DNA from: Vermamoeba vermiformis
Taxonomy: Eukaryota
DNA length: 64,000 nucleotides
Direction: 5' to 3'
Assembly: GCA_045837725.1 (NCBI GenBank)
Contig: JBEWZL010000263.1
Span: forward strand, 186,001-250,000
Position 1 is the stretch's first letter. The number at the start of each line of letters is the position of its first letter. A program made the position numbers and the translations under genes. The notes under the pieces are model-generated. The model was not told the DNA's origin and ran no database searches. It saw only the letters and a list, made by a program, of their open reading frames with translations. Shown in pieces: positions 10,411 through 64,000 of the stretch.

Positions 10411-12258
10411 ATGGATCTTCTTCTTGAATCGATCCCTTTGGAATTACAACAATTAATATTCTCTAAAATTCCTTTCAAATACTTCTAGTAAAAAGTCTCT
10501 GCAGGCCATGATGCAAATAGCTTTTCAACAAAATTAATTGTTCGTCGTACGCCCTATTTAAAGACGGCAGGCAAATAAATGTAAAAGCTATTATTTTTTA
10601 CTAATTTTTAAAAATTTATTCAGCGTGAGTCTTGTTTGTCGACGGTGGAACAAGTTGTTTTGGCAAACGAGAACCAGTATCGTGCTCCACAAAGACACAG
10701 GGTTTCGATATGAAGCTAAACTCAACAACGAAGATGAATTCAATGCATTGTTGACGAAACTAAGACCAGAACTCATCGAGAGAATTGCCCAACAAAACGA
10801 CTCGTTCTTGATCTCAAATCTGGACAAGTTCAAAAACCTCACGAGCTTCACGGAGTACAAACGCAAGGGGGTAAATAATCGTGCGGAGGAGAACAATGTC
10901 CAGATCTATTCAACACTGAAGAACTTGCCCAAACTGAAGCACCTGGATCTTCAATGTATGTCTTCGATTTCAAACTATAACCATGTCTTTGCGTGCAAGT
11001 CTTTAAGAGCAATGTTTCGTACTGACGCTATTAACGTACAGTTGAGAATGCTGCACGCGAAGAAGAGCTATTTGAAATAATAGCCGCGTGTACTTCACTC
11101 GAAACGCTCAGTTTTAAAGTGACGCACGGCTATTATTTCACCGGCCGTACCACGCCCTATTTAACCAGATTGAAGCGACTGAAAGACTTGAACTGGCCCA
11201 TGGACAAAAATAACTTTAAGGAGCTGGCTGATGCTGGCATTCAATTGACCAAACTCATATTCAACCACTCGCACGAGGACCTCCAACACATCTCTTTATT
11301 CACGAATTTGAAGTCCATTGTGATGTGTATGTGCAATCGATAATACTACAGCACCTATTCTAATCGTACTGCGGCTCATTTTAGACTGCAACAATACGTG
11401 TAACACGAAGACGATTGAAGCACTAGCGGCTCTAACAACGTTAGAAGAGATCGATCTTCCCTATCTAGCGTATGACTTACTTCCAGACCTGCAGAAACTG
11501 AGCTCGTTGAAAAATCTGAAGCGATTCACCATGTACGGTACCACTCAAGATCTAACCCAAGGGCTCGAACAGGTAATAATAAATCTGTTACTATTTGCCT
11601 ATCAAGTGTAAATGACGCGTTGTTGATTAGAAAGGATCGCCGTTCAGCTGGGTAACAAAACTGCCCTCGTTGAAATGTCTGCAGGTCAATACATTAGGCC
11701 ATGGTTTGCCAGACAATTTGAGTCAATGCACGGCCCTCAAAGAGCTGAAAATTAACGTCGAGACTATGGACGAGATGCTTGTATTAGTGCAACTGACGCA
11801 GCTTGAAGATTTGGTAATAGAGGAGGGAAACAACTTCAAAAACATGGCGGATGTGGTACCTCGACTGACACACTTGAAACGTTTGACCATCTCTTTTGGA
11901 TTTGGGGATGATTTGATGGAGTTGTCGCGTTGGAGTCAATTACAGGCGCTGACTCGTCTCGAGATAGAAAATATAGGCGATGTAACTGAAGATGAGATCT
12001 TGCGCCTCATCGCAGCAATGCCGAATTTGAAGCAGTTATTCCTTCATGGAAATCGTATTGCGGAACTAAACACCGATAGAATACCAAACACGAGCATCAA
12101 GTTCATTTCAACGCTCAGTGAGGCCGATCGGTTTTGGATGTGCGAATATACGAAGCACATTCGAGACACTGTTCATTGGCGCTTCTTTGGTAAGATACAT
12201 TCAATCATATGAATATCACAGCTAAGCGTATTTAATAACAGACACAAACCTCTATTGA
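10411..12258 (+). CDS. F-box/LRR protein, tandem paralog 1
   Basis: First exon MDLLLESIPLELQQLIFSKIP splices to VSLVCRRW (F-box). LRR exons follow (ORFs 10625, 11119, 11670). Last exon DTNLY*. Confidence 0.85.
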
Positions 12259-12434
12259 CCTGGCGACGCGCCGAAACTCAAGCTTCCTCATTGTATTTCA
12301 ATTAAATTAATGAATCTATGACATGATATTTCGTGTAAATACCATTGTAGATAATTTTAAGGCACAATGGTTGTAAAGGGCGCGATAAAATTTGCAACAA
12401 AATTTTTAATCGAACCTTCGGACCACAACGCGCG

Positions 12435-25785: not shown

Positions 25786-26371
25786 TTGTCTGAATAATAG
25801 TAAAAACTTGTCAGTCATATTTAAAAATTATTTTTACTCAATATTGTCGCTCGATAATATCTAGGCACAATAAAAATAGAAGAAATAAAATTTTTCAACC
25901 AATTGGAAAGCAAATCCAAACGTGTGTGGGATCTGCTAGCAGACTCACGATAGCCGTGCACGTCTAGTTCAATACTTACCCGCCGTGTATTGTTATGCGC
26001 GTGTTGATAAGTTGTAGTGAGTGATATTGAAAGTCAATGAGTTAATGAACTTCACGATCGAGTACACGCACAATAATTTTAACACGTGCTTTTTTGTAAG
26101 CAAGAGAATTTACTTCTGTGTTCGTTCGCACGCGACAATGGGGGAGACTATTCGAATCGAAAGCAAATTATGTAAAACCTGTCAATCAATCAAAAAAATT
26201 GATCTCTGCCAACGACAAATTTTTGTTTAAACAAAAGCGCGGATTACAACCCACTAACGTTGCGTTTCCAAAGTTTTAGGGAATAATTAGAGGGAGGTAC
26301 ATAACTTACAGCTCAGAGCACCTACGTGGACGTCAACCGACGCAAAAGAGGATCGCAGGACAAAAAATGAA

Positions 26372-26430
26372 TTCCGATACCGGGAGTCGAACCCGGGGCC
26401 CCTGGGTGAAAACCAGAAATGTTAACCGCC
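26372..26430 (-). pseudogene. 5'-truncated tRNA-Glu(TTC) copy lacking the first 14 nt
   Basis: 59 nt identical to 26698-26756. The 5' acceptor strand and first D-stem strand are replaced by unrelated AT-rich sequence. Confidence 0.9.
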
Positions 26431-26697
26431 ATGATTAAAAACAGTACGCAATCGCCCTATAAAGATTTGTTCATGAACATAACGAATGTCATATATCATC
26501 AATACGAAATTTCAATTGATTCGAATCAAAAAAATAACTCTTTGTATTCGTATCAATTAGATCTGTAATGATTCAAAAATAAATATGATCCGAATGAAAA
26601 TACTGTAATCGCAATATGAATTTTCATCAAAATAAAATCTGAATCACATCTTGCCCTACTAAGATGAATAGAAACAAAAAAGAGATAAAAAAACGAA

Positions 26698-26770
26698 TTC
26701 CGATACCGGGAGTCGAACCCGGGGCCCCTGGGTGAAAACCAGAAATGTTAACCGCCTACACCATATCGGA
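26698..26770 (-). tRNA. tRNA-Glu(TTC)
   Basis: TCCGATATGGTGTAGGCGGTTAACATTTCTGGTTTTCACCCAGGGGCCCCGGGTTCGACTCCCGGTATCGGAA folds as a cloverleaf with anticodon TTC and is followed by a T7 terminator. Confidence 0.95.
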
Positions 26771-37864: not shown

Positions 37865-38344
37865 TTACTGGTATGATATATATCACAGTATTATACTTAG
37901 TTTTCCTTTCTGCGCCTTTCACCTATTTATTTGTAATAAATATTATTTATTTTGGATGCGCGTCCAAGGAAAGGATTATAGTTACCAGGATATTATTTAC
38001 TATATTGCAATATAGTATATCTGGCCAATCTAATCTTTGGATCGGAACTTCTGATCCACCTCGTCCATTTCGTACTGCGTTTACCGTATCTTTCTAGATC
38101 TGAATCACTTCGTACTCATAAATGATTGTCAACTCCTCTGATCGTCTTGAAATATTTAACTATAAAATATCTAACAAAATCTCGACGGACGTGACCCGCG
38201 AGATTAAATTTCGTTAGATGTGTCACGCACATGTCAAAATTTTGGGCGCGGGTAGTTTGTCAGACCATTTCAATCTTTGAAATTTTCATCGACTGGAGGA
38301 TGTATATGCGATATTTACTCAAATTTATATAAAGCAGAATCAAT

Positions 38345-51581: not shown

Positions 51582-54500
51582 ATGAGTGGACGAGGCTATA
51601 CTGACGAAGAAGCAAAAGGTAAGATGTCAAAATTTTAATCGCGAATCTGATTCTTGAAAACGAAGGGCTGCTGAATGGAGAAGGTCCTAAAAGCCGGCGA
51701 ATGAGCTTTGGAGCGAAGGCAAGTTGATGACAAGCCTATTGCAAAGTTAAATAACGAGATTTTCAGATCGCGATCGCCGTTGCAATTGTCGCGGTTGTTG
51801 CAGGAGCGACAGTTGGTATTGTCTTTTGGGCTAAAAGTGATCGTCCTGATTTTCAGCAAATGATGTTCGATGCTATTGATCCAAACGGCATCAAAAGTAC
51901 GATGAAAGAACTTAGTTCTTACCCGCATATTGCTGGATCTCCTGAAAACTATCAAGCTGCAGAATGGGTCAAAAATAAGTACGACAATAATAGTCCATAT
52001 ATCTGTTGTCTAATTATCGACTAGATTCATCGAACATGGCATCCCAGAAGTCTGGATCGAGTCTTATCCAGTATTACTCAATTATCCGCTTGACCGTGTT
52101 GTTAATTTAGTCGGCGGTGCTTCTCAGAACTATTCATGCGTCATGGAAGAGAAAGTAAGCCTTTATTATTTAATTTCCGAACTTATTTCAAAAATACACT
52201 GCCTAATTTGGAAATCATTATTAATGGTGGCACTTATAGTCATATCAAAGCATTGATGGCACGTCAGGAGATCCGCGAGCAGTTCCGCCGTTCAGTGGCT
52301 ATTCTGCTTCGGGTGATGTCACTGCTGAGCTCGTATTTGCTAATTATGGACGTATTGAAGACTACCTTTATCTCGATAAGAACAATATTCCAATTAAGTA
52401 CGCAAATTAATATTTTTTCTGTTGGATCTGACTAATTTCTGATGTTTAGGGACAAAATTGTTATTGTCCGTTATGACAAGATTTTCCGCGGCGACAAAGT
52501 GCACATGGCCGAGCAGCGAGGAGCAGCAGGCGTATTGATCTATCACGACCCAGCTGATGACGTACACGGCACGGTCTATCCTTACGGTCCGTGGCGTGCT
52601 CCGACGAGTGTGCAGCGCGGCACAGTGTGGATCGGCAATGGTGATCCGACCACGCCCGGCTACCCTTCAACACCGTACAGCCCGCGCTTGAACTTGAATC
52701 AGACCCGCGACGCTGCATTGAACCTGTGAGTGATGGGAAGTCACTAGTATTCATTCACTAACCTCGCTTTAGGAACACTCCGCTGCCTTCAATTCCTGTT
52801 CAGCCACTCGGATACGCCGATGCAGAGCCACTGTTGCGAGGTAAGCGAGACAGTATGACGTACGAAGCCATACCTAATACCTCGAAACAACAGCCATTGG
52901 TGGCCATGCTATTCCGTCTGCGGACTGGCAAGGAGGTCTCAACTTCACTTATCACATTGGGCCTGGCCCCGCCATAGTACACATGAAGTAAGAATGATAT
53001 TAGTATCATTGCACGTGTTTATTATAACATCTATTCAATAGACTCGAAATGAACTTCACGATTGTCAACATCCACAACGTGTTCGCAAAAATTCCTGGTG
53101 AAATCGAGCCCGATCGTATGGTCCTCGCTGGAAGTCACAGAGATGCGTGGGTAAGTTAGTAGCAGTCTGTGTTAATATCGCTAATATCTCCAGACATTCG
53201 GAGCTACGGATCCGATCAGCGGAACTTCGAACATGCTCGAAGCAGCCAAGGGCCTTGGCAAGATTTACGCGAATGGTAATGCATTGTATTCTCTAAGTAT
53301 AATCATTGGATATTGACGAGCTAGTACAGGCTGGAGGCCTCGTCGTTCAATTGTGATGTGTTCGTGGGACGGCGAAGAGTACGGTCTAATTGGCTCGGTT
53401 GAATTCACTGACTTGCACTTCAAAGAGCTCACTGAACGAGCGGTCATCTACATGAACATGGACCCCGGCGTAAGTAATCAAGTCGATTTGACGGTTGAGT
53501 TGACACGTGTCAAATGTAGGTCTACGGCATCGACTTCTTCGGTGCTTCAGGCACACCCAACCTCCGTCAAATGATGGTTGAAGTGACGAAACAGGTGCCG
53601 GGGCCTAGTGCGAGCAATGCACCAACGACAGTGTTTGATTTGTGGAGCAAGGGAGGCAATGACTCCCGCACCAACTTGCCTACTTTCGGCACATTGGGCG
53701 CTGGTTCTGATTACGGTGGCTTCTTACAGGTACTTTTGATTTATTATTGGCCATCACTTCGGCATGACTTCTGACATCATTGACAGCGCGTCGGAGTTCC
53801 TAGTTTGGACATTAGTTTCCAAAGTTTTGATGGCGCGTACATTGCTGGCGCGTATCACTCCAACTACGACAGCTTTTACTACTTCAATCAGTGGCTCGAT
53901 TCCAAGTACGAATACTCAGCCAGTCTGACCAAAGTGTTCGGACTCGTCCTCAAAACTTACAGCGGTAAGTCCACTTATTTTTGCCTTACATTCGCGAAAC
54001 TTACTCTTTCATTTAGAATCTGTCGTACTGCCGTTTAACTACGGAGATTACGCAGGAGATTTAACTGCGTTTGTTGCTCAACTCGAACAAGGGGCACAGC
54101 AGACTTTCAACAAAACTTACGAAGAGTTCCAAATCATCAAGAGCGCTGTAAGTTGGAGCACAAGTTTGAGGACTATATTCATATGATCTTATATTAGGTT
54201 TATCGCTTTGCGAATTGCACGCAACAAGTTCAAAATGACATCAATAAGTACTCCGCATTGGCGAAGGATGACAAGGAATATGCGTTGCAAATCAGACAAT
54301 TGAATGATCGATTAATGCTCACTGAGCGTGCTTTCATCGATTACAATGGCTTGCCTGGTGCTCCGTTCTTCAGACACGTGGTTTATGGTACAAAATTTTA
54401 TCAATTTTATTCGCTTACTTTGAGCTAATGCACAGTTATTCAATAGCGCCAAGCAAGTATAATGAGTATTATGGCCAAGCCTTCCCGGCAATCTCAGACT

Positions 54501-54598
54501 CTATCTACGTTCGAAATGAAACAGCGATGCTTTGGGCCGTGCGATACAATTCATTGTTTGTTGATGGCGCAACAGCATTTTTATGTCCAAAATTTTGA
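51582..54598 (+). CDS. Glutamate carboxypeptidase II / NAALADase-like M28 peptidase (type II membrane, PA domain)
   Basis: N-terminal TM; HIAGS, RYDKIFRGDKV, VQRG, GDPTTPGYPS, GSHRDAW, GATDPISG, SWDGEEYGLIGS, GAGSDY, YHSNYD and NDRLMLTERAF. Confidence 0.93.
53805..53858 (+). repeat. 54-bp exact inverted repeat, copy A (inside a GCPII exon)
   Basis: TTGGACATTAGTTTCCAAAGTTTTGATGGCGCGTACATTGCTGGCGCGTATCAC is the exact reverse complement of 61971-62024. Confidence 0.95.
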
Positions 54599-55090
54599 GC
54601 TTAATGTTCTAATAAAATCCATTTAGATGCTTAAAGCGAAGGTGCAGCAAGAACTATTGTTACATAAATGGGACTTGATGTAGGGTCAAATCAACGAAGG
54701 AAAATTCCTTTATAAAAATAAAAAGAGTTGCTATATTTAGAAATCAAAGAAAAAGGCATGTACATTCGGAAAACCCGAACGTACGCAATTACGGTACGAC
54801 AATACAACAGCAGTTGAGTTCATACATAGTGTTCGGTATGTTACCAACGTAAAACGAAGCAAAATTAAATTTACGAGAATTCAGATCGTAGAAAAGCTTT
54901 TAAAGAACTCTTTAAACTCTATCGTTTTAAGCTGAAATTACCTTAAATATTTTAATCAGAGGTTTAAAATTTAGAGCATTGAACGAACAAAAGTGTACTA
55001 AAACCAAGTACAAATACTGAAAACAATTTAGGGATAATTTTTAAAATATTAATCTACCATATTAATAAGTAGTATTTTAGAGTACCAGTA

Positions 55091-55705
55091 ATGGGCCAAG
55101 AGAATAAACGGCAACCGAAATCCGATTGCGTCGGCAACGTTTTAGCTAAAATTAGTACTGTGGTTATTCCTATTCTGATTGTCGGTCACGACAAGGTGGG
55201 CAAGACCTCATTAATTAGGAGATTCGTGTTTGGCGACAATTTGGAAGAATCTAATGCAGATGCGGATGCATCCACTAATGGTCTCCGAAAAAGAATAGCA
55301 GTCGACAACACTCCTCAAACACTGGAGTTATTCGATGAAGTAGGTGGACATAATTACGACGTAGAGGCACTTCATACAGCCATCAAGAACGTAGAAGCCT
55401 TTGTGATCGTGTACGAAGTGGATTCGCCGCTCAGTTTTGAAAAAGTGCAAGAGAAATACAACCTTATTGAGAGCGTTACTGAAGGCACTTCAGCGCCTAT
55501 AGTCATTGCAGCCAACAAAGCCGACACGGACAAATTCCATTGGAAGGTCAGTACCGAGCAAGGTAAAAGCTTAGCGGATCGGATGGCGCACGGCGAATAC
55601 ATCGAAGTGAGTGCCAAGAGCGGGCATAATGTCAACAAGTTGTTTGAACGCGTTGGAGAGCTCGCTGTAATTAAGAGAAGACCGCCGCCGCCTCTGAAGA
55701 ATTAG
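55091..55705 (+). CDS. Atypical Ras-family small GTPase (intronless, no CaaX)
   Basis: GHDKVGKTS (G1), LFDEVGG (altered G3), NKAD (G4) and EVSAK (G5). N-terminus MGQ. Confidence 0.88.
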   Translation: MGQENKRQPKSDCVGNVLAKISTVVIPILIVGHDKVGKTSLIRRFVFGDNLEESNADADASTNGLRKRIAVDNTPQTLELFDEVGGHNYDVEALHTAIKNVEAFVIVYEVDSPLSFEKVQEKYNLIESVTEGTSAPIVIAANKADTDKFHWKVSTEQGKSLADRMAHGEYIEVSAKSGHNVNKLFERVGELAVIKRRPPPPLKN

Positions 55706-56053
55706 AACGAGCGAAGAAGATGCTCTGTTGCTGTTAATAATATTGTATATAGGATTTTCATCGATTTTGTAAGATGTACAACAACATTGAATAGTTTTAA
55801 AACAATAATTTTGATGCCAGATCAAGCTCGCTACAAATGGCGCGGTGGTTTCCAGCATTGAAATCGATTAAAACAAAAATTAAACGATCTGTTATCATTA
55901 ACGATATTTTATTCGCGAATAAAAGGGTGGTTATTTACAGGGTAAACGGGATTTGGGTTGATAAATTAGATTTGCGCCGATTGTCTATTAAAATTATGAC
56001 GATTATCGTAATAATTTTGTTATTGTATTGTGGTTCGGCATATTCGTATGTAC

Positions 56054-56674
56054 TTAATCGTTCTTGATAATACCACTGTTGTGGATTTCAAGAGGAGGAT
56101 ATCCAAACAAAGTGCGAATCTTGTTATTAACAATAGCAAAAGGTCCGTGACCAGCATAAGTAGCATATCCTAACAGCATAGCAACGGTAGCAGCTTGACC
56201 GTAAACTCTGAAAGCCATACCTAAGCGAAGAGGGATTAATAAATTGGATCACAGTGAGTTCATTTGAAATATTCCGGATAAAAATATGACAGTAATTGCA
56301 TCGTGCGCCTAATAGAAATAATGGTAATAATATTGCTGTAGAAATTAATTTAAGCACGGGATCTAGAATTGAAAAATTTTGTGACACGGCAATTACCTCG
56401 CGCGCTTTGTTGCTTGTTGCCAGACATCATAGAAAACATTCCGTAGCCGAGGACACCAGCAGTAGCAGCCATACCTATTTTAATTAATTTGTCAGAATAA
56501 ATCCAAGCCGAGTGGAAATATTTCATTTCGGGATGTGCTTCTCAATGCCGCGGCATACTTACCAATGCCGACGAATGGTGTTCGCTTAAGAGTGTCCGAG
56601 ACACTGTGGGTTTGAACTTCGGCGCGGTCGCCGTATTCGCGCTGAGGAGTAAGAATACCGCTGTTTTTGCTCAT
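56054..56674 (-). CDS. HIG1-domain mitochondrial membrane protein (HIGD2/Rcf1-like)
   Basis: Three exons splice to LKRTPFVGIGMAATAGVLGYGMFSMMSGNKQQSARGMAFRVYGQAATVAML, matching the HIG1 pattern. Stop at 56054-56056. Confidence 0.85.
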
Positions 56675-57111
56675 GATTAGATGTGGTTTTTGTTTCGTAA
56701 GAAATTGACGTGTGGTGTCGTCTTCTTTTGTTTGGTGAATATTTGGCCCAAAAATTTGCTTAAATATCCGTTTTTTTGAAGCGCCGCTCGGAAAATCAGC
56801 TGACTATTCATGAAAAAAATGGCAAGTCACACCGACCGGAGATTCGATTGCAATTGTTATTCGTGAGTTAAGAAGACCACTGTTTGATGATCTGATGTTC
56901 GTAGAGCAATTTCAATGTCTTGTTCGTGCCGTGGGTTCTCTGGTTAGATTTGACCTTTTTCAAACTCCGTGAATGACAGCTAACTCCGTAAATTGGTTCT
57001 GCAAGCCCGTTGAAATATTTGCTGTAGGATAAAGGAGTCAATTGTTGAATATTAGCGCTGCCGGATTAATGCGGCCTCGAAAAGTTCGTTCTTCTTTTTT
57101 GTTTTTCTGTT

Positions 57112-58799
57112 ATGCTCCGATCAACAGTCTCGCGTCGCTTTCTTAGCCTTACGAGTACATTAAGCACCACAAATAAGGCAGCTTCACCTCTTTTACTTAC
57201 ACTACAGCGCAGATCGATCTCAAACTCGAAGATGAGCACTACAATTGCTGAAGTTAAGCCAGGCACGACCAGAATTGGTTGGATTGGTACTGGTGTAATG
57301 GGTACATCAATGGTTGGTCATATGTAAGCTAAACCAACCCGGATCATGCATTTTTAATTAATTGATATTTTTGTCAAAAATATTAATTCATTTACCGAGA
57401 ATATTCAGCTAGACCGTTATTTAAATATTTGAATAAATTATGAGATCATTCTGGTTTAAAGGATCCTTTATTTACCTTCAGAAATTTCGAATCATATTTC
57501 TTGGGTGCTTTAATATATTATTGTATGCATACCATATCATTATTTTTTGTTAGTATGAAAGCTGGTTACTCTGCCACTGTCTTCAATCGCACTGCATCCA
57601 AGGCTCAAGCTCTGGTCGAGAAAGGTGCTAAAATAGGCTCATCACCAAAGTAAGTACTGCGATTCTTAATATAATATTTGCACGTGCTATTTATCAATTA
57701 TCTATCAATTAGCATAATTTAATGCTCAATTTCTTGTAGAGAAGTCGCTGAGCAATCAGATATCGTGTTTACTATTGTTGGCTACCCTAAAGACGTCGAA
57801 GAAGGTAAATAATACACACAGCAGTATATTAATTGATACACTATTCAAAGTGTTAATATGTGAAATTGATACGTTATTTTTTTTGTTGTTGGATCGGATC
57901 TTTTGAACAATAAGAAAAGTGACTAACATTTACTTCATATGAACAGTCATCTTAGGCACTGACGGAGTGTTGGCTGGTCTCAAGCCAGGCGGTATTGTGG
58001 TGGATATGACCACTTCTAAGCCTAGTCTTGCGCAACAGATCTCGCAAGCCGCACTTGCGAAGGGCTGTCATGCAGTCGATGCCCCAGTCTCTGGCGGCGA
58101 TATTGGCGCTCGTGAAGCTCGATTATCGATCATGGTCGGCGGCGAGGAGAACGTCGTACAAGCCATTGAGCCTTTGTTCAAATGCATGGGCACGAACATT
58201 AAGTACATGGGTCCTGCTGGTACGTCAAAAATTTTACCGATGTGTTACCTTTTATTTCTCATTTAAAACCTACTACGGCTCATGCTAGTGTATTATATGC
58301 CTGACATGGTATTATATAGGTGCTGGCCAGAACACTAAGATGGTCAATCAAATTTTGATCAGCACGATGATGGTCGGTCTCGTTGAAGGTCTTATTTACG
58401 GTTACAAGGCTGGTTTGGACTTGAATCAAGTCTTGGCGGCTGTTAGTGCCGGTGCTGCGGGCAGTTGGTCCTTGAACAATTATACTCCCAGAATTTTCAA
58501 GCGTAACTTCGTAAGTGAAAATTATTTGTTCAGATCCCGCTTTTGACGCAATATTAATTCTTGGAATTAAATAGGACCCTGGTTTCTTCGTCGAACATTT
58601 CATCAAGGATTTGGAGATTGCCATGAGCGAGGCACAACGCATGGACTTGAAGTTGCCAGGCCTCGAATTGGCCCTCAAGTTGTACAACGAGTTGAAGGCC
58701 CTCGGTCACGGCAAGAAAGGCACTCACGCGCTGATGTTGGTGCTCGAGAAGATGAACAACGTGGAGGTCAATGTGCCTCAGCCCGCTGAAGCGAAATAA
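57112..58799 (+). CDS. 3-hydroxyisobutyrate dehydrogenase-like (beta-hydroxyacid dehydrogenase), mitochondrial
   Basis: R/S/L-rich transit peptide; [39 protein letters not shown] and [12 protein letters not shown]. Confidence 0.92.
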
Positions 58800-58995
58800 A
58801 CAAGCTTATCCTCTTTGCCACAATCATATTGGCCATTTATTGCCGTTGAGCGCACTACCTTCAACTTACTTTATTTTTGTTGTCGCGTGTAACGGTGGCG
58901 TGGGTGTTTCCAAACATGGTGAAACTGCCCGCTTTACAGGGTTTTTTAATGAAACATGCCCGCTTTACAGGTTCTAAATTTAACCTTACTTCACA

Positions 58996-61807
58996 ATGGA
59001 CCACAATATTGTCGTCCTAGTACTTTTGTTATTCAATCCAGCACTTGGGTTACGATCAATAAATTTAACTCCAGGTTGGCCGTACCAAAGCACGGCTCTT
59101 TCGGGATCGGCAGCCCAAGCTTTCTCAAACTTAACCGAAATAATTGTGGAGGCTCGAATTCATGACTTTGACACCTCTCAATCGAGTATGGCAATTTGCT
59201 TATATTTTTGGGACTAAAACAAAATTTTCAGGTTACAAGTGGATCTTCAACGCGGCTGGGCTGTCCTTACGAACTTACGAGGCTGGATTTTATTTCTACA
59301 ACGACCGCGACGTATTTGACGGACCAACCGGACAAATTATAGATGTAACAGGAAGAACGGATGTTCTAGTTCGTTTTGGCCGTGGAGCAGATTCGGTTTA
59401 TTTTGCCGAACTGTGGAACGTAGATGGTAGTGATTATAGATACGCTGGTTTTAAGGTCAAAACTCTCGTGCCAGATTGGAGTAGTGGGAAGATCGAGCTC
59501 AGCAATGTCCCAACTACTGCCAAAATAGCGTGGATGAGAATCTACTCGAAAGTCACGACCGGACAGAGTTTCCCGCCCTCGCCGATCCCCAGAGATAATT
59601 TGCTGGCTAACTACAATTTTGAAGATAATGGCAACGATTCAGGGCCTCATGGAATCGATTTTGCATTCGATGGATCTGCTACATTTTCAGACACCCCAAC
59701 TTACAATCCCGTAGCCAGTCTGCTACGTGTCGGTTCACCTACTTGGACCTCGCAGCTCTCTGTGCGAGCCAACGTCGATTTTGAAATAGATGGATCGTTC
59801 AGCTATCCTCTTGGCAACGAAGAGCCACTCACGTACAGCTGGGAGCTGCGCAGTCAGCCAGGCTCTAGCGCCATTCAATCCCCTAACGCAGCTAAAATTT
59901 CCTTTTCTGGAACTGAGTTTGGATCTTACGTTTTCAAATTGACCGTTACAGAGACAGGCACAGGTGCCTCTAGTTCGGCCGAGATTGCCATCGGAGTTGT
60001 TCCGACGGACATCAACGGCGTCGTGCAGCACGATGATCCGTTACTAGCAACAGTGTTTGGTCCGTTGATTCTGTGGGGAGAGTCGCCGTGGCCGTTTTTG
60101 GACGAGCGAAATTACGCGCTGCTCGAGTACTTTATTGAGACACTTCATTCCGCACCGGAGTTTGACAGTCTCGACTGGTCGCAAGCACTCAGCGGAACAA
60201 TTTCTGTCACGAAAGACTCCACGACGGTGACCGGCACTGGCACGGATTTTCAGAACGATTTCTGTGACGGCGGTACAACGGGGACTCGTTCGCTGGTCAT
60301 CTGGTACCAAGACAACAACGAGATTGGCCGCAGACACTACGATGTGGTCTCTTGTCAAAGTGCGACCCAATTGACACTCTATCAAGCCTATTCTACGACA
60401 GACAGCGCGTCAGGCATTCAACACTCACGACTGTGGTGTCCTGCGTGCTGGCTCGGCGGCAGTTCAAACATCAACTACTACGACAATGTGCTGGCGTTGT
60501 ATTCATTCTACTACCGAACTGGCCTCCAGAAGTACCTAGACGAAGCACGCAGGTTGGCAGATCTCTGGGTCAAAGCACCAACACTGGACGAAGGACGAAT
60601 CTGGACCACTGGCCTAGACGTAGGTCCCAAGCGTGGTCCACCACGTTTACAGGCCTTGCTAGGAGTTATGTGGTCCGCTTACGAGCAAAAATCAGACTAC
60701 CTATGGACCGTCGTAGGCAGAATTCTGACCATCTCAGAGCCGCAAAGTTACGTCGGCGATGTTCGTGAAGACGCCTACACACTGGGCTTCATGTCCGTCG
60801 CTTCCATGCTCCACCCTGATGCGAGCACGCGGCAACAATACAAGGACAGTGTCAACGCAACTTTGCACATTAAGTGGTTGCCTACGAGGGACGCGACGTA
60901 CAAGACTTGGCCGGTGTTGTACTATGGAATTTCGCCTTGGAACGGGTACACGGGCACGGTGGCAGTGACGCAGGGCTCCACTCAAGTGATTGGCACGGGC
61001 ACGGCATGGACCGCTGACATGACACAGAACTTCTTTTGGGTCGCTGATGTCAACGGTGCCAATGGGGATTCTGAGGCGTACCTCAACCCAACTTTTGTAT
61101 CTCCCACCGAGATCACACTGCCCCGCCCTTACGAGGGACAAACAGCGACTGGTCGTGGCTGGCAGTTCAACAACGTTGTGGGCAGAGCAGTGCAACCTTT
61201 TCAGCTGGGCATTGCAGCGCAAATGTTCTACTACGCGTATCGAGCTACTGATTCAGCACTGGCGAGCGAGTTGATGTTCAACGCCATCGACTTTATCATG
61301 GACTACGGCATTCAAGAGTCAATGCGCGCACTCTACTACGCACGTCTGTCACCTTCCTGCGAACCAATCACAGATAACATGCCTGGATGTGCGGGCAGTC
61401 CTTCTGACTCGCTGCAAGTGGCCAACGCCCGATTTCTGAACGGAGAAGTCATCGCGGCGTTCTCGCGCGCATACACCGTCAATCCGACCCAAAAGATTTT
61501 AAGAGAGGGAGACAATCTAGTGTCAGCAGCGCTGGGCCATCTCGGCGGTCCTGGCGCCGATGACAACTACGCCCTGGAGCTGCAAGAGTTCATTATCGCC
61601 AAGTCGTTCAAGTTCAAAGACATTGGATTCTTCTTCGGAGTGGGTGGTTCAGCCACGTGGCCTGCTGCGCGCTTGGGACCTTCGCCACCCAGCTCGCCTA
61701 ATTCTCCGTCAGCGACCACGACTCCCAAATCAGTGTCAGATGCGTCTGGTCTGTACGCGAATGTTGCTAGCTTTATTATGATAGGATTGTTAGTTTGTGT
61801 AATGTAA
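58996..61807 (+). CDS. Large secreted/GPI-tailed protein: LamG-like and PKD-like domains plus an (alpha/alpha)-toroid-like region with two GTxxVTxxSTxVxGTGT inserts
   Basis: Signal exon 58996-59185, intron 59186-59231, then a single 2.6-kb exon. PKD-like DGSFSYP..LTYSW...GSYVFKLTVT; YYDNVLALYSFYYRTG; QPFQLGI; Pro/Ser stalk and hydrophobic tail. Confidence 0.8.
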
Positions 61808-61970
61808 TGTTTGTTTTTCTATTTTAATTGTGTGTGAATAATGCTATAGCATTTCTGCAAAACGAAATAAAAGAGAAGACAACAAGTGGTTTGACGGTAC
61901 TCTCTGTACGACAGAATCTTAATTTATTGCCCGCTTACTATTCGGCTTGTTCAAGCGGAGTTAAACTGTC

Positions 61971-62024
61971 GTGATACGCGCCAGCAATGTACGCGCCATC
62001 AAAACTTTGGAAACTAATGTCCAA
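61971..62024 (-). repeat. 54-bp exact inverted repeat, copy B
   Basis: Reverse complement of 53805-53858 with no mismatch. The first flanking base differs on both sides. Confidence 0.95.
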
Positions 62025-62076
62025 GATGGATCCGTTGTTTTCACATTTCGACAACAGGACTCCAATGCGAACTATA

Positions 62077-64000
62077 TTATTGGTGATATTCGCTGTACTG
62101 CCTCGAACTAGCCTTTGACGGCATAGTAGTCTCCATGACGAGTTTTCTGAGCTCTGTCAGCGCTGTATTGAGTTCAACCTCGTTCAAGATGATCGTCTCC
62201 ATTTGCTCGCGGGTGATTTGGCTGAAACAAAGTCTTATTAAGACCAACTCTATTAAAACATAATTGAGATATTACGTACCATAGGGCATAAAGTGAAGTG
62301 ATGCCGTTGCGTTGAAAGTCGTGGTAATAATGTTCCATATTCAGACCTCGAAAGAAGTTCAACATGTCAGCAGGCAAAGTACTTAGCGTGCACGTGATTG
62401 GCTGTAATTGGCGCGGTGTGGGGTCTTGAACGGTAATGTACAAACACAAAATTGTTTTTCGCTCTGAAATTTCACTTTCGTTAGATCTGACTAACACTGT
62501 TATCGTATAATCGCTTACCTAGCATTTTGGGTCCAATACAGAGCAATAAGCCATTATAATGCATCTTTAATGCCTAAATAAGACAGTTAGATCCTGGTCC
62601 AATTAACGCAAGTAGCGGATGTGGCTCACCCAAAACGCTTTGAAGTTCGGGTCCCAAAATGCTTTAGGCAACGAGTGCTTATCGGTGAGCACGGGTGATA
62701 TTAACTGAATGCAGTAGTGTCCTGTCGGCATGGTCTGTGAATCACAAATGCACATTTCACGTGCCATCAACAACTTTGGCAACTCATTGATGTGGCTGCA
62801 AATAAAGGTTAGCACCGACATTACCAAATTAGGCAAGAGACTTACGGGATCGCTTGAATGCGCGGGTCATTGGGTATGAACAGCTCCATGTACTGTTGCT
62901 TGATCGTGCCCAAACCAGGCCACAACAGCCCTCCGTGCCAAGCTGGGGGTGGCTCAATGCGTGTCAGCACGAGTGGTCCGTCAGCAATGTACGGCAACAA
63001 CACTTTTTGCTGCGCTTTGGAGCTGTCACTGGCCTTAGTCTTCTCGGAACTGCTGTGTGATTGGCGCAAGTTGTCGGGAGTTCTGTTCCTTGAAGGCGGG
63101 TACAACTGATTTTGCTCCGAATAATTCACACCCTCACTGCTATTGTTGGTGTTGTTATTCGTATTATTGATGTTGTTATTGTTGAGGGCCTGTGTCGTGT
63201 TAGATACTGGGATCATTTTTCCGTCCGGGCCACTGTAATAATTCCATTGGTAATTGGTGTTATTGTTGTTGTTATTCACGGCGTTGTTTATGCGCGCTGA
63301 AGGGTCCTCTTGACTGTCATTAATCGTGATCACATTTTGTTCCTGGTAGCTCGGCACAGCTGCAGTCTGTTGGTGTTGCACTAACGGTGCCATCGTCTTT
63401 GTGACTTTATCAGGACTGACTCTGAAATATTTATCTAATGGACCTATGATACGCGGTGAGGTGCTGTCATTATCGTTGGTATTGTTACCCTCCGCGATGT
63501 TGTTTGAAAATCCCTCGGGGTTCGGCTGAACATGCTGTCTTGGACTGATTGAGGGCGCAGTATTAGTGCCGGGGATGGCATTATTGTTATTGACTGCATT
63601 AGCTCTCGGCATTGGAGGACTATTCGGGGGCAAGTAGCTCTGCTCATCGAGCTCAAAATTGGTCAGTCCAAACTCGCTCGACCTCGCCAAGTCATTGTCA
63701 GGTCTCGTCTGTTGTTCCTGCCCTTGCTGCTGTTCAATTTGGATGTCTGGCACTGCCTGATGATCCGTGTACTGTTGCGTTAATTGTCCTAAATCATCTG
63801 GTGAGTGTGCTGGCGAGGCATGATCTCGCTCAGGCGAGCGATTACTTTGTTCGTCTTGGCCGTATGGCGCAGCTGACTCTTGTGACGCTTGTGACTGACT
63901 GGCGGCGCTCCAATACGACCAGTATTCGTCCGTGCGATAAATTTGGCGGCGCGAGGGACGAGAGTTGGGTTTCAATCGATTCAACTCGCTTTGATCCGCA
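62077..64000 (-). CDS. Putative regulator (5' end outside window): Q/N/S-rich N-terminus, uncharacterised central domain, C-terminal SAM-like domain
   Basis: ORF 62842-63984 is spliced via introns 62796-62845 and 62574-62629. SAM-like FFRGLNMEHYYHDFQRNGITSLYAL..ITREQM. Simplest stop is at 62077; an alternative last exon would end at 61938. Confidence 0.7.

Follow-up and report, generated by a model that had tools for sequence, protein, structure and literature searches.

The window, by which we mean the whole 64-kb stretch of DNA that was analysed, contains a perfect inverted copy of 54 nt of a GCPII-like exon, situated 8.1 kb downstream of the original in the spacer between two convergent genes. 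The 54 bases at 53805-53858 on the plus strand (copy A) are the perfect reverse complement of those at 61971-62024 (copy B), with 54 of 54 bases identical. We put the probability at roughly 70% that copy B is a one-off templated insertion ("one-off" within the 64 kb), made at the DNA level and in cis, and likely a neutral scar.

Copies A and B constitute the only inverted repeat pair that a repeat search detected in the 64-kb window. The exact 54-bp inverted copy had been described in the first-pass annotation, and both this repeat search and a listing of exact repeats reproduce it at 54/54. Thirteen maximal exact repeats of at least 18 nt are present in the window, and eight of them reach at least 25 nt, comprising six between tandem paralogs (10.6-14.1 kb), one partial copy of a tRNA-Glu and the pair formed by copies A and B. 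A self-alignment, which the first-pass annotation had proposed as a check, was carried out on the window by sensitive blastn and returned nine non-self pairs at E<=0.05, including copies A and B at E 1.4e-22. No other dispersed pair is stronger than E 0.02. Of the remaining eight pairs, four exceed this strength (three tandem paralogs and one tRNA copy) and four are weaker (two palindromes and two exact 19-mers). By our own estimate, the chance expectation of a 54-mer match in 64 kb is ~1e-23.

Several of the other repeats have features of their own. Three tandem units of ~2 kb at 10419-14187, spaced 1992-2024 nt apart and 82-93% identical, look like a small tandem gene family. The positions 26362-26444 and 26698-26770 hold a tRNA-Glu(TTC) pair, in which the intact gene is accompanied, 326 nt away, by a 99% identical copy of its 3' part; this partial copy is without the 5' 14 nt, is called by neither ARAGORN nor Rfam, and is a truncated tRNA copy. 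Short palindromes are found at three places, two of them perfect (20 nt at 37998-38017 and 18 nt at 55907-55924) and the third imperfect (37 nt at 57356-57392).

Copy A lies within an intact exon-intron context, with the following features:

53805-53858, plus strand: copy A (donor), 18 codons reading LDISFQSFDGAYIAGAYH, inside the GCPII-like exon
53787-53964, plus strand: exon with copy A, in the PA/M28/TFR_dimer (GCPII-like) gene, splice sites read from the sequence
53730-53786 (GT..AG, 57 nt) and 53965-54016, plus strand: introns flanking the copy-A exon, as read from the sequence

The introns of the window are of the GT..AG type and ~50-60 nt long, and the organism is an intron-rich eukaryote. 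Copy A begins 18 nt into its exon and is codon-aligned over exactly 18 codons; the register, verified from the exon start at 53787, agrees with the 18-codon reading given in the first-pass annotation. The host gene has the PA, Peptidase_M28 and TFR_dimer domains in this order, detected by Pfam on separate exons (E 1.1e-6, 1e-6 and 2.4e-11, respectively). The exon preceding copy A (53520-53729) aligns to positions 423-483 of GCPIII (3fec_A, E 3.3e-4) and to positions 459-520 of NAALADL (4twe_A, E 1.7e-3), and the copy-A exon aligns to positions 523-579 of 4twe_A, directly after the segment matched by the preceding exon. In this last alignment, which for the exon alone (60 residues) has a weak E value of 0.5, SLDISF faces SMDIAY and AYHSNYDSF faces TYHTAFDTF. 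Although weak by itself, the match is convincing because it is collinear with that of the preceding exon. The His of the YH motif in copy A is one that we take to be a zinc ligand in GCPII. Searched separately, the copy-A exon and the preceding exon matched no Pfam family even at E<=10, and the exon after copy A retrieved no GCPII chain from the PDB, giving two weak unrelated matches only. A word search of the copy-A exon against longer proteins yielded 15 candidates, none at E<=0.001. Because copy A occupies a conserved collinear position in a PA/M28/TFR_dimer gene, it is the native copy and most probably the donor; the domain order and the collinear alignments to 4twe_A and 3fec_A uphold the same proposal in the first-pass annotation.

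Copy B lies in a different setting, which comprises the following features:

61971-62024, minus strand: copy B, perfect inverted copy, with the same sense on the minus strand as copy A
62077-62221, minus strand: last exon of a SAM-like gene, with its TAA at 62079-62077 and the preceding intron at 62222-62279
61923-61928, minus strand: AATAAA, downstream of copy B, presumably the SAM-like gene's poly(A) signal
59144-61807, plus strand: convergent open frame of 887 codons with a PKD-like domain, its stop at 61805-61807 and a separate AATAAA at 61866-61871

Copy B begins 52 nt beyond the TAA of the SAM-like gene and ahead of that gene's AATAAA, in the 270-nt spacer between the two convergent genes and on the SAM-like gene's side, while the AATAAA of the convergent gene lies ~100 nt before it. 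The first-pass annotation had placed it between the stop of the SAM-like gene and the AATAAA, and with these two at 62079-62077 and 61928-61923 the placement is correct. Copy B is presumed to lie in the 3' UTR of the SAM-like gene and, if that 3' UTR extends so far, the GCPII-like and SAM-like mRNAs would both carry the 54 nt in sense. The SAM assignment is tentative, since the matches of the upstream exon to SAM_EPH (19 bits, cut-off 27) and SAM_2 (17 bits, cut-off 20.5) are below the Pfam cut-offs. The convergent 887-codon frame is intron-free; its product has a single K319L-like PKD domain and a tail rich in Ser and Pro, and is hydrophobic at the C-terminus. This 887-residue protein had no usable match in the ESM Atlas.

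The first-pass annotation had also noted an open frame through copy B. Such a frame exists at 61938-62156 on the minus strand and comprises 72 codons, though it differs from the frame of the SAM-like exon, and beyond copy B it continues for 10 codons (DSLTPLEQAE and a stop). The 72-codon frame has no Pfam match and no protein relatives in a word search among proteins of near lengths. A copied piece of coding sequence may show perfect codon alignment and an open frame for that reason alone, and we take both features of copy B to have this origin.

Similarity between the two copies stops sharply at the edges of the 54 nt. When each copy is aligned locally together with 300 nt on either side (654 nt in all), exactly the 54 nt are returned, and alignments restricted to the flanks score 10 and 14, compared with shuffle means of 9.5 and 9.9 and shuffle maxima of 15 and 16. 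At the left junction the extension is 0 nt by definition, and at the right junction there is either a 2-nt AC overlap or an offset match of GACAG or ACGACAG. As the first-pass annotation had observed, GACAG adjoins copy B directly and follows copy A at a distance of 9 nt; when 200,000 pairs of positions were drawn at random, the probability of such a 5-mer coincidence came to P=0.019 with one junction considered and P=0.038 with both. The longer form of the match is located as follows:

53866-53872, plus strand: ACGACAG, 7 nt after copy A, matching the copy-B junction

At copy B, ACGACAG straddles the junction, its AC being the final 2 nt of the copy and its GACAG the letters that follow. This extension was noticed post hoc, and a formal P, of nominal significance, belongs to the GACAG 5-mer only. 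The ACGACAG match is possibly microhomology. However, the 9-nt offset of GACAG is explained by no single simple template switch, and an offset match of this kind (P ~0.02-0.04) weighs against the reading of copy B as a templated insertion. A hairpin near the junction (ACGACAG/CTGTCGT) was considered as a notable structure and rejected on the basis of the fold of the region (z -1.57). A further resemblance in the flanks is that between ATTAAGATTCTGTCGTAC (61906-61923, minus strand, downstream of copy B) and ATTTAGAATCTGTCGTAC (54011-54028, plus strand, 152 nt downstream of copy A), which agree at 16 of 18 positions; ATTAAGATTCTGTCGTAC contains the reverse complement of ACGACAG, and the score of this resemblance is within the range of shuffled flanks.

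The flanks also bear on gene conversion, a variant raised in the first-pass annotation. According to this explanation, which we consider unlikely, an old and decayed inverted exon fragment at 61.93-62.03 kb would have had 54 nt refreshed recently from copy A. When gaps are made very cheap, a collinear alignment emerges between the right flank of copy B and the part of the donor exon downstream of copy A, through the blocks GACAG, TTTA, ACTyC, GCTyGA, CAAG and CGAATA.T.AGC, with a score of 82.7 against a null of 65.9 +/- 5.7 (2 of 300 shuffles), and this gap-rich resemblance could reflect an older, longer copy. However, anchored alignments with real-sequence nulls give right-flank p values of 0.021-0.65 over nine parameter settings, so that extended homology on this side is not robust across parameters and may be regarded as a hint only. 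The left flank is never notable (p 0.22-0.75 in anchored alignments, 0.27 with cheap gaps). Gene conversion requires flanking homology; none is detectable at copy B, and standard local alignment finds nothing past the 54 nt. What survives of the variant is thus a marginal, parameter-dependent hint.

An origin through RNA was considered in two forms. There is no target-site duplication at copy B, where the flanks GGATCCATC and GACAGTTTA have no direct repeat in common; nor is the copy followed by a run of A that could be a poly(A) tail. The lack of both argues against retrotransposition, and an insertion of this type (class 1 TSIP or processed fragment) was rejected for want of a target-site duplication and a poly(A) tail. 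In the second form, which we regard as quite unlikely, a double-strand break would have taken up a fragment of the GCPII-like mRNA or its cDNA, in the manner of class 2 templated sequence insertions. Such patches are without target-site duplication and poly(A) (PMC5110952), and copy B corresponds to a piece wholly inside one exon, compatible with an RNA template. However, the piece crosses no exon junction, so that nothing in it points positively to an origin from RNA. There would also be no reason for an RNA patch to settle within 8 kb of the gene that it came from, and its doing so by chance would be most improbable. With donor and copy as close as 8.1 kb on the same molecule, a DNA template in cis is more likely than an RNA patch.

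Searches beyond the window gave no further copies, related loci or empty site among the collections covered. The 24-nt repeat core had no exact match in metagenome, viral and prokaryotic genome contigs, and a search of metagenome contigs for the orthologous locus, based on the C-terminal 250 residues of the convergent open frame, returned 68 pattern matches, none of which was confirmed. For positions 61500-62600, 24 sequencing runs were listed, of which 20 contain all or part of the stretch and four contain at least half of its words. Four runs (X1, X4, X7 and X21) were compared over 53400-62600; runs X9-X20, whose word shares are small, do not enter the evidence.

Copy B is present in a second lineage. 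X7, a soil metagenome from another study and year, includes a 151-nt contig (record 22) that lies on 61909-62056 with two other letters and one gap; it runs through copy B and on into 62 nt of flank on the left and 32 nt on the right, which satisfies the 31-letter rule for bridging. Over 8 of the 13 X7 records, 32 of 1571 letters differ from the window (~2%). Since this lineage, ~2% diverged, carries copy B, the insertion predates the split between the two. Among several readings, the first-pass annotation had proposed a very recent templated insertion, with copy A as the native donor and copy B between the SAM gene's stop and its AATAAA. The native donor, the presumed 3' UTR site and the templated insertion are retained here, whereas "very recent" is, on the scale of strain divergence, not supported in view of X7. 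By our own estimate, ~0.5-0.7 changes between the copies would be expected under neutrality since the X7 split, and an identity of 54/54 would be expected about half the time; the identity thus requires neither extreme recency nor selection.

The other three runs differ in what they reveal of the region. Eight contigs of X1 (organism A) each match the window letter for letter along 440-965 nt. Near copy B, the sole X1 contig at 61939 has a 9-nt deletion there, and at 62055-62061 two contig forms (depths 342.2 and 434.4) both have 1-nt indels relative to the window. No X1 form matches the window at 61939 and 62055-62061, which suggests several haplotypes or strains in X1, or a window that is a consensus at these positions. 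X1 contigs at 57329-57876 likewise fall into two depth classes with small indels (e.g., 375.8 of 894.2). Two X1 records fit two places, as they might if X1 contained both copies, though this does not prove that it does. In X4, a water metagenome, the depth in the bin 61689-61995 comes fully from record 16, and the run is uninformative on copy B because this record ends at 61924. X21 consists of raw RNA reads from a 90-95% alike lineage (1665 of 1865 reads in that band), and its depth over the GCPII-like and SAM-like genes is 0 in nine of ten bins and 0.06 in the remaining one (54321-54627). Elsewhere, X21 reads pile up at 56050-56720 to ~100-125 per strand class with several opposite-strand joints, and a 176-nt skip at 56218-56393 has CT..AC ends, indicating an intron of a minus-strand gene.

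A functional role for the repeat is very unlikely. The 54 nt might act as a shared sense tag (the target of a regulator or small RNA), as an antisense element through convergent read-through, or as a pair of recombination sites. By their orientation the copies are in sense in both presumed mRNAs, the frame remains open for 10 codons past copy B, and copy B has been kept in the X7 lineage. However, retention at ~2% divergence would be expected under neutrality. Folded as DNA, 61900-62080 does not stand out from its shuffles (z = -1.57; 16 of 200 fold at least as well), and Rfam has no match at copy B, its two matches in the whole window both being tRNAs elsewhere. An antisense action would have to contend with the convergent gene's own AATAAA ahead of copy B. 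In the recombination variant, a flip of 53.86-61.97 kb would truncate the peptidase after the His codon (adding DSLTPLEQAE before a stop), and the truncated peptidase would lose its TFR_dimer domain. Among 15 of the 29 joints, those listed, none falls at the repeat, and contigs drop rare forms. The stronger claim that selection has kept the 54-nt pair, as inversion sites (53.86-61.97 kb) or as a 3'-UTR/coding tag coupling two mRNAs, is highly improbable. If it were true, inversion would switch the peptidase to a form truncated after the catalytic Tyr-His, with 3' ends swapped with the SAM-like gene, or the shared tag would place both mRNAs under a common regulator, either a small RNA or an RNA-binding one.

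It is scarcely credible that copy B arose as an artefact when the window was assembled or polished. The small indels between the window and the X1 contigs nearby (9 nt at 61939; 62055-62061), perhaps reflecting a haplotype consensus, might point that way, but the independent X7 contig joins both native flanks through copy B.

Templated insertion is the reading that best fits these observations. All 54 bases of the insert have a native genomic source elsewhere, namely copy A in the GCPII-like exon, and homology does not extend beyond the insert, apart from the marginal right-flank hint obtained with very cheap gaps. In the mechanism that we infer, a 54-nt stretch of the GCPII-like exon would have been copied at the DNA level, in cis and inverted, with copy A as template, and the copied stretch would have entered a break or stalled fork in the convergent-gene spacer 8.1 kb downstream. 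The route was probably either a template switch during replication (FoSTeS/MMBIR type) or an event at a double-strand break, namely synthesis-dependent end joining or the capture of a patch. Afterwards, copy B would most likely have been a neutral scar.

Understood in this way, the locus is a clean case, found in nature, of a microbial eukaryote that carries a short templated insertion, with an unambiguous donor and both partners on one 64-kb stretch. Copy B is common to at least two lineages; once an empty site is available, it could serve to mark strains and to test template-switch models. Taken alone it gives no indication of new biology, and looks like an ordinary case of an already known kind, a templated insertion or repair scar. 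Three known systems are relevant for comparison. Templated insertions of the MMBIR type have an insert near and inverted to its template, with microhomology at the junction, as described in PMC8421209. Copy B resembles these MMBIR/FoSTeS events in being short and inverted, in having its template on the same molecule, and in its sharp edges and lack of a target-site duplication. It differs from them in being a single simple insert rather than a complex rearrangement and in the distance of its template, 8.1 kb against ~100 bp; the MMBSearch tool of the same paper searches for the template within 100 bp, and the longer distance weighs against an MMBIR reading. Insertions at breaks in yeast include templated ones that are distant and inverted (PMC11724301). 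Copy B is similar to these Break-Ins (RPA, Rad27 and Dna2 mutants), in which pieces of nuclear DNA are inserted at a break, sometimes inverted. As presented there, however, the Break-Ins are experimental, with an induced break and mostly in mutants, whereas copy B is a natural inherited allele for which a break is presumed. Insertions that patch double-strand breaks in humans, which are inherited and without target-site duplication or poly(A), are described in PMC5110952. Like the class 2 human TSIPs of that paper, copy B is an inherited short templated insertion without target-site duplication, poly(A) or cryptic poly(A) signal. However, the class 2 TSIPs are proposed there to be RNA-derived and to come from distant regions, whereas the closeness of copy B to its source favours a DNA template in cis.
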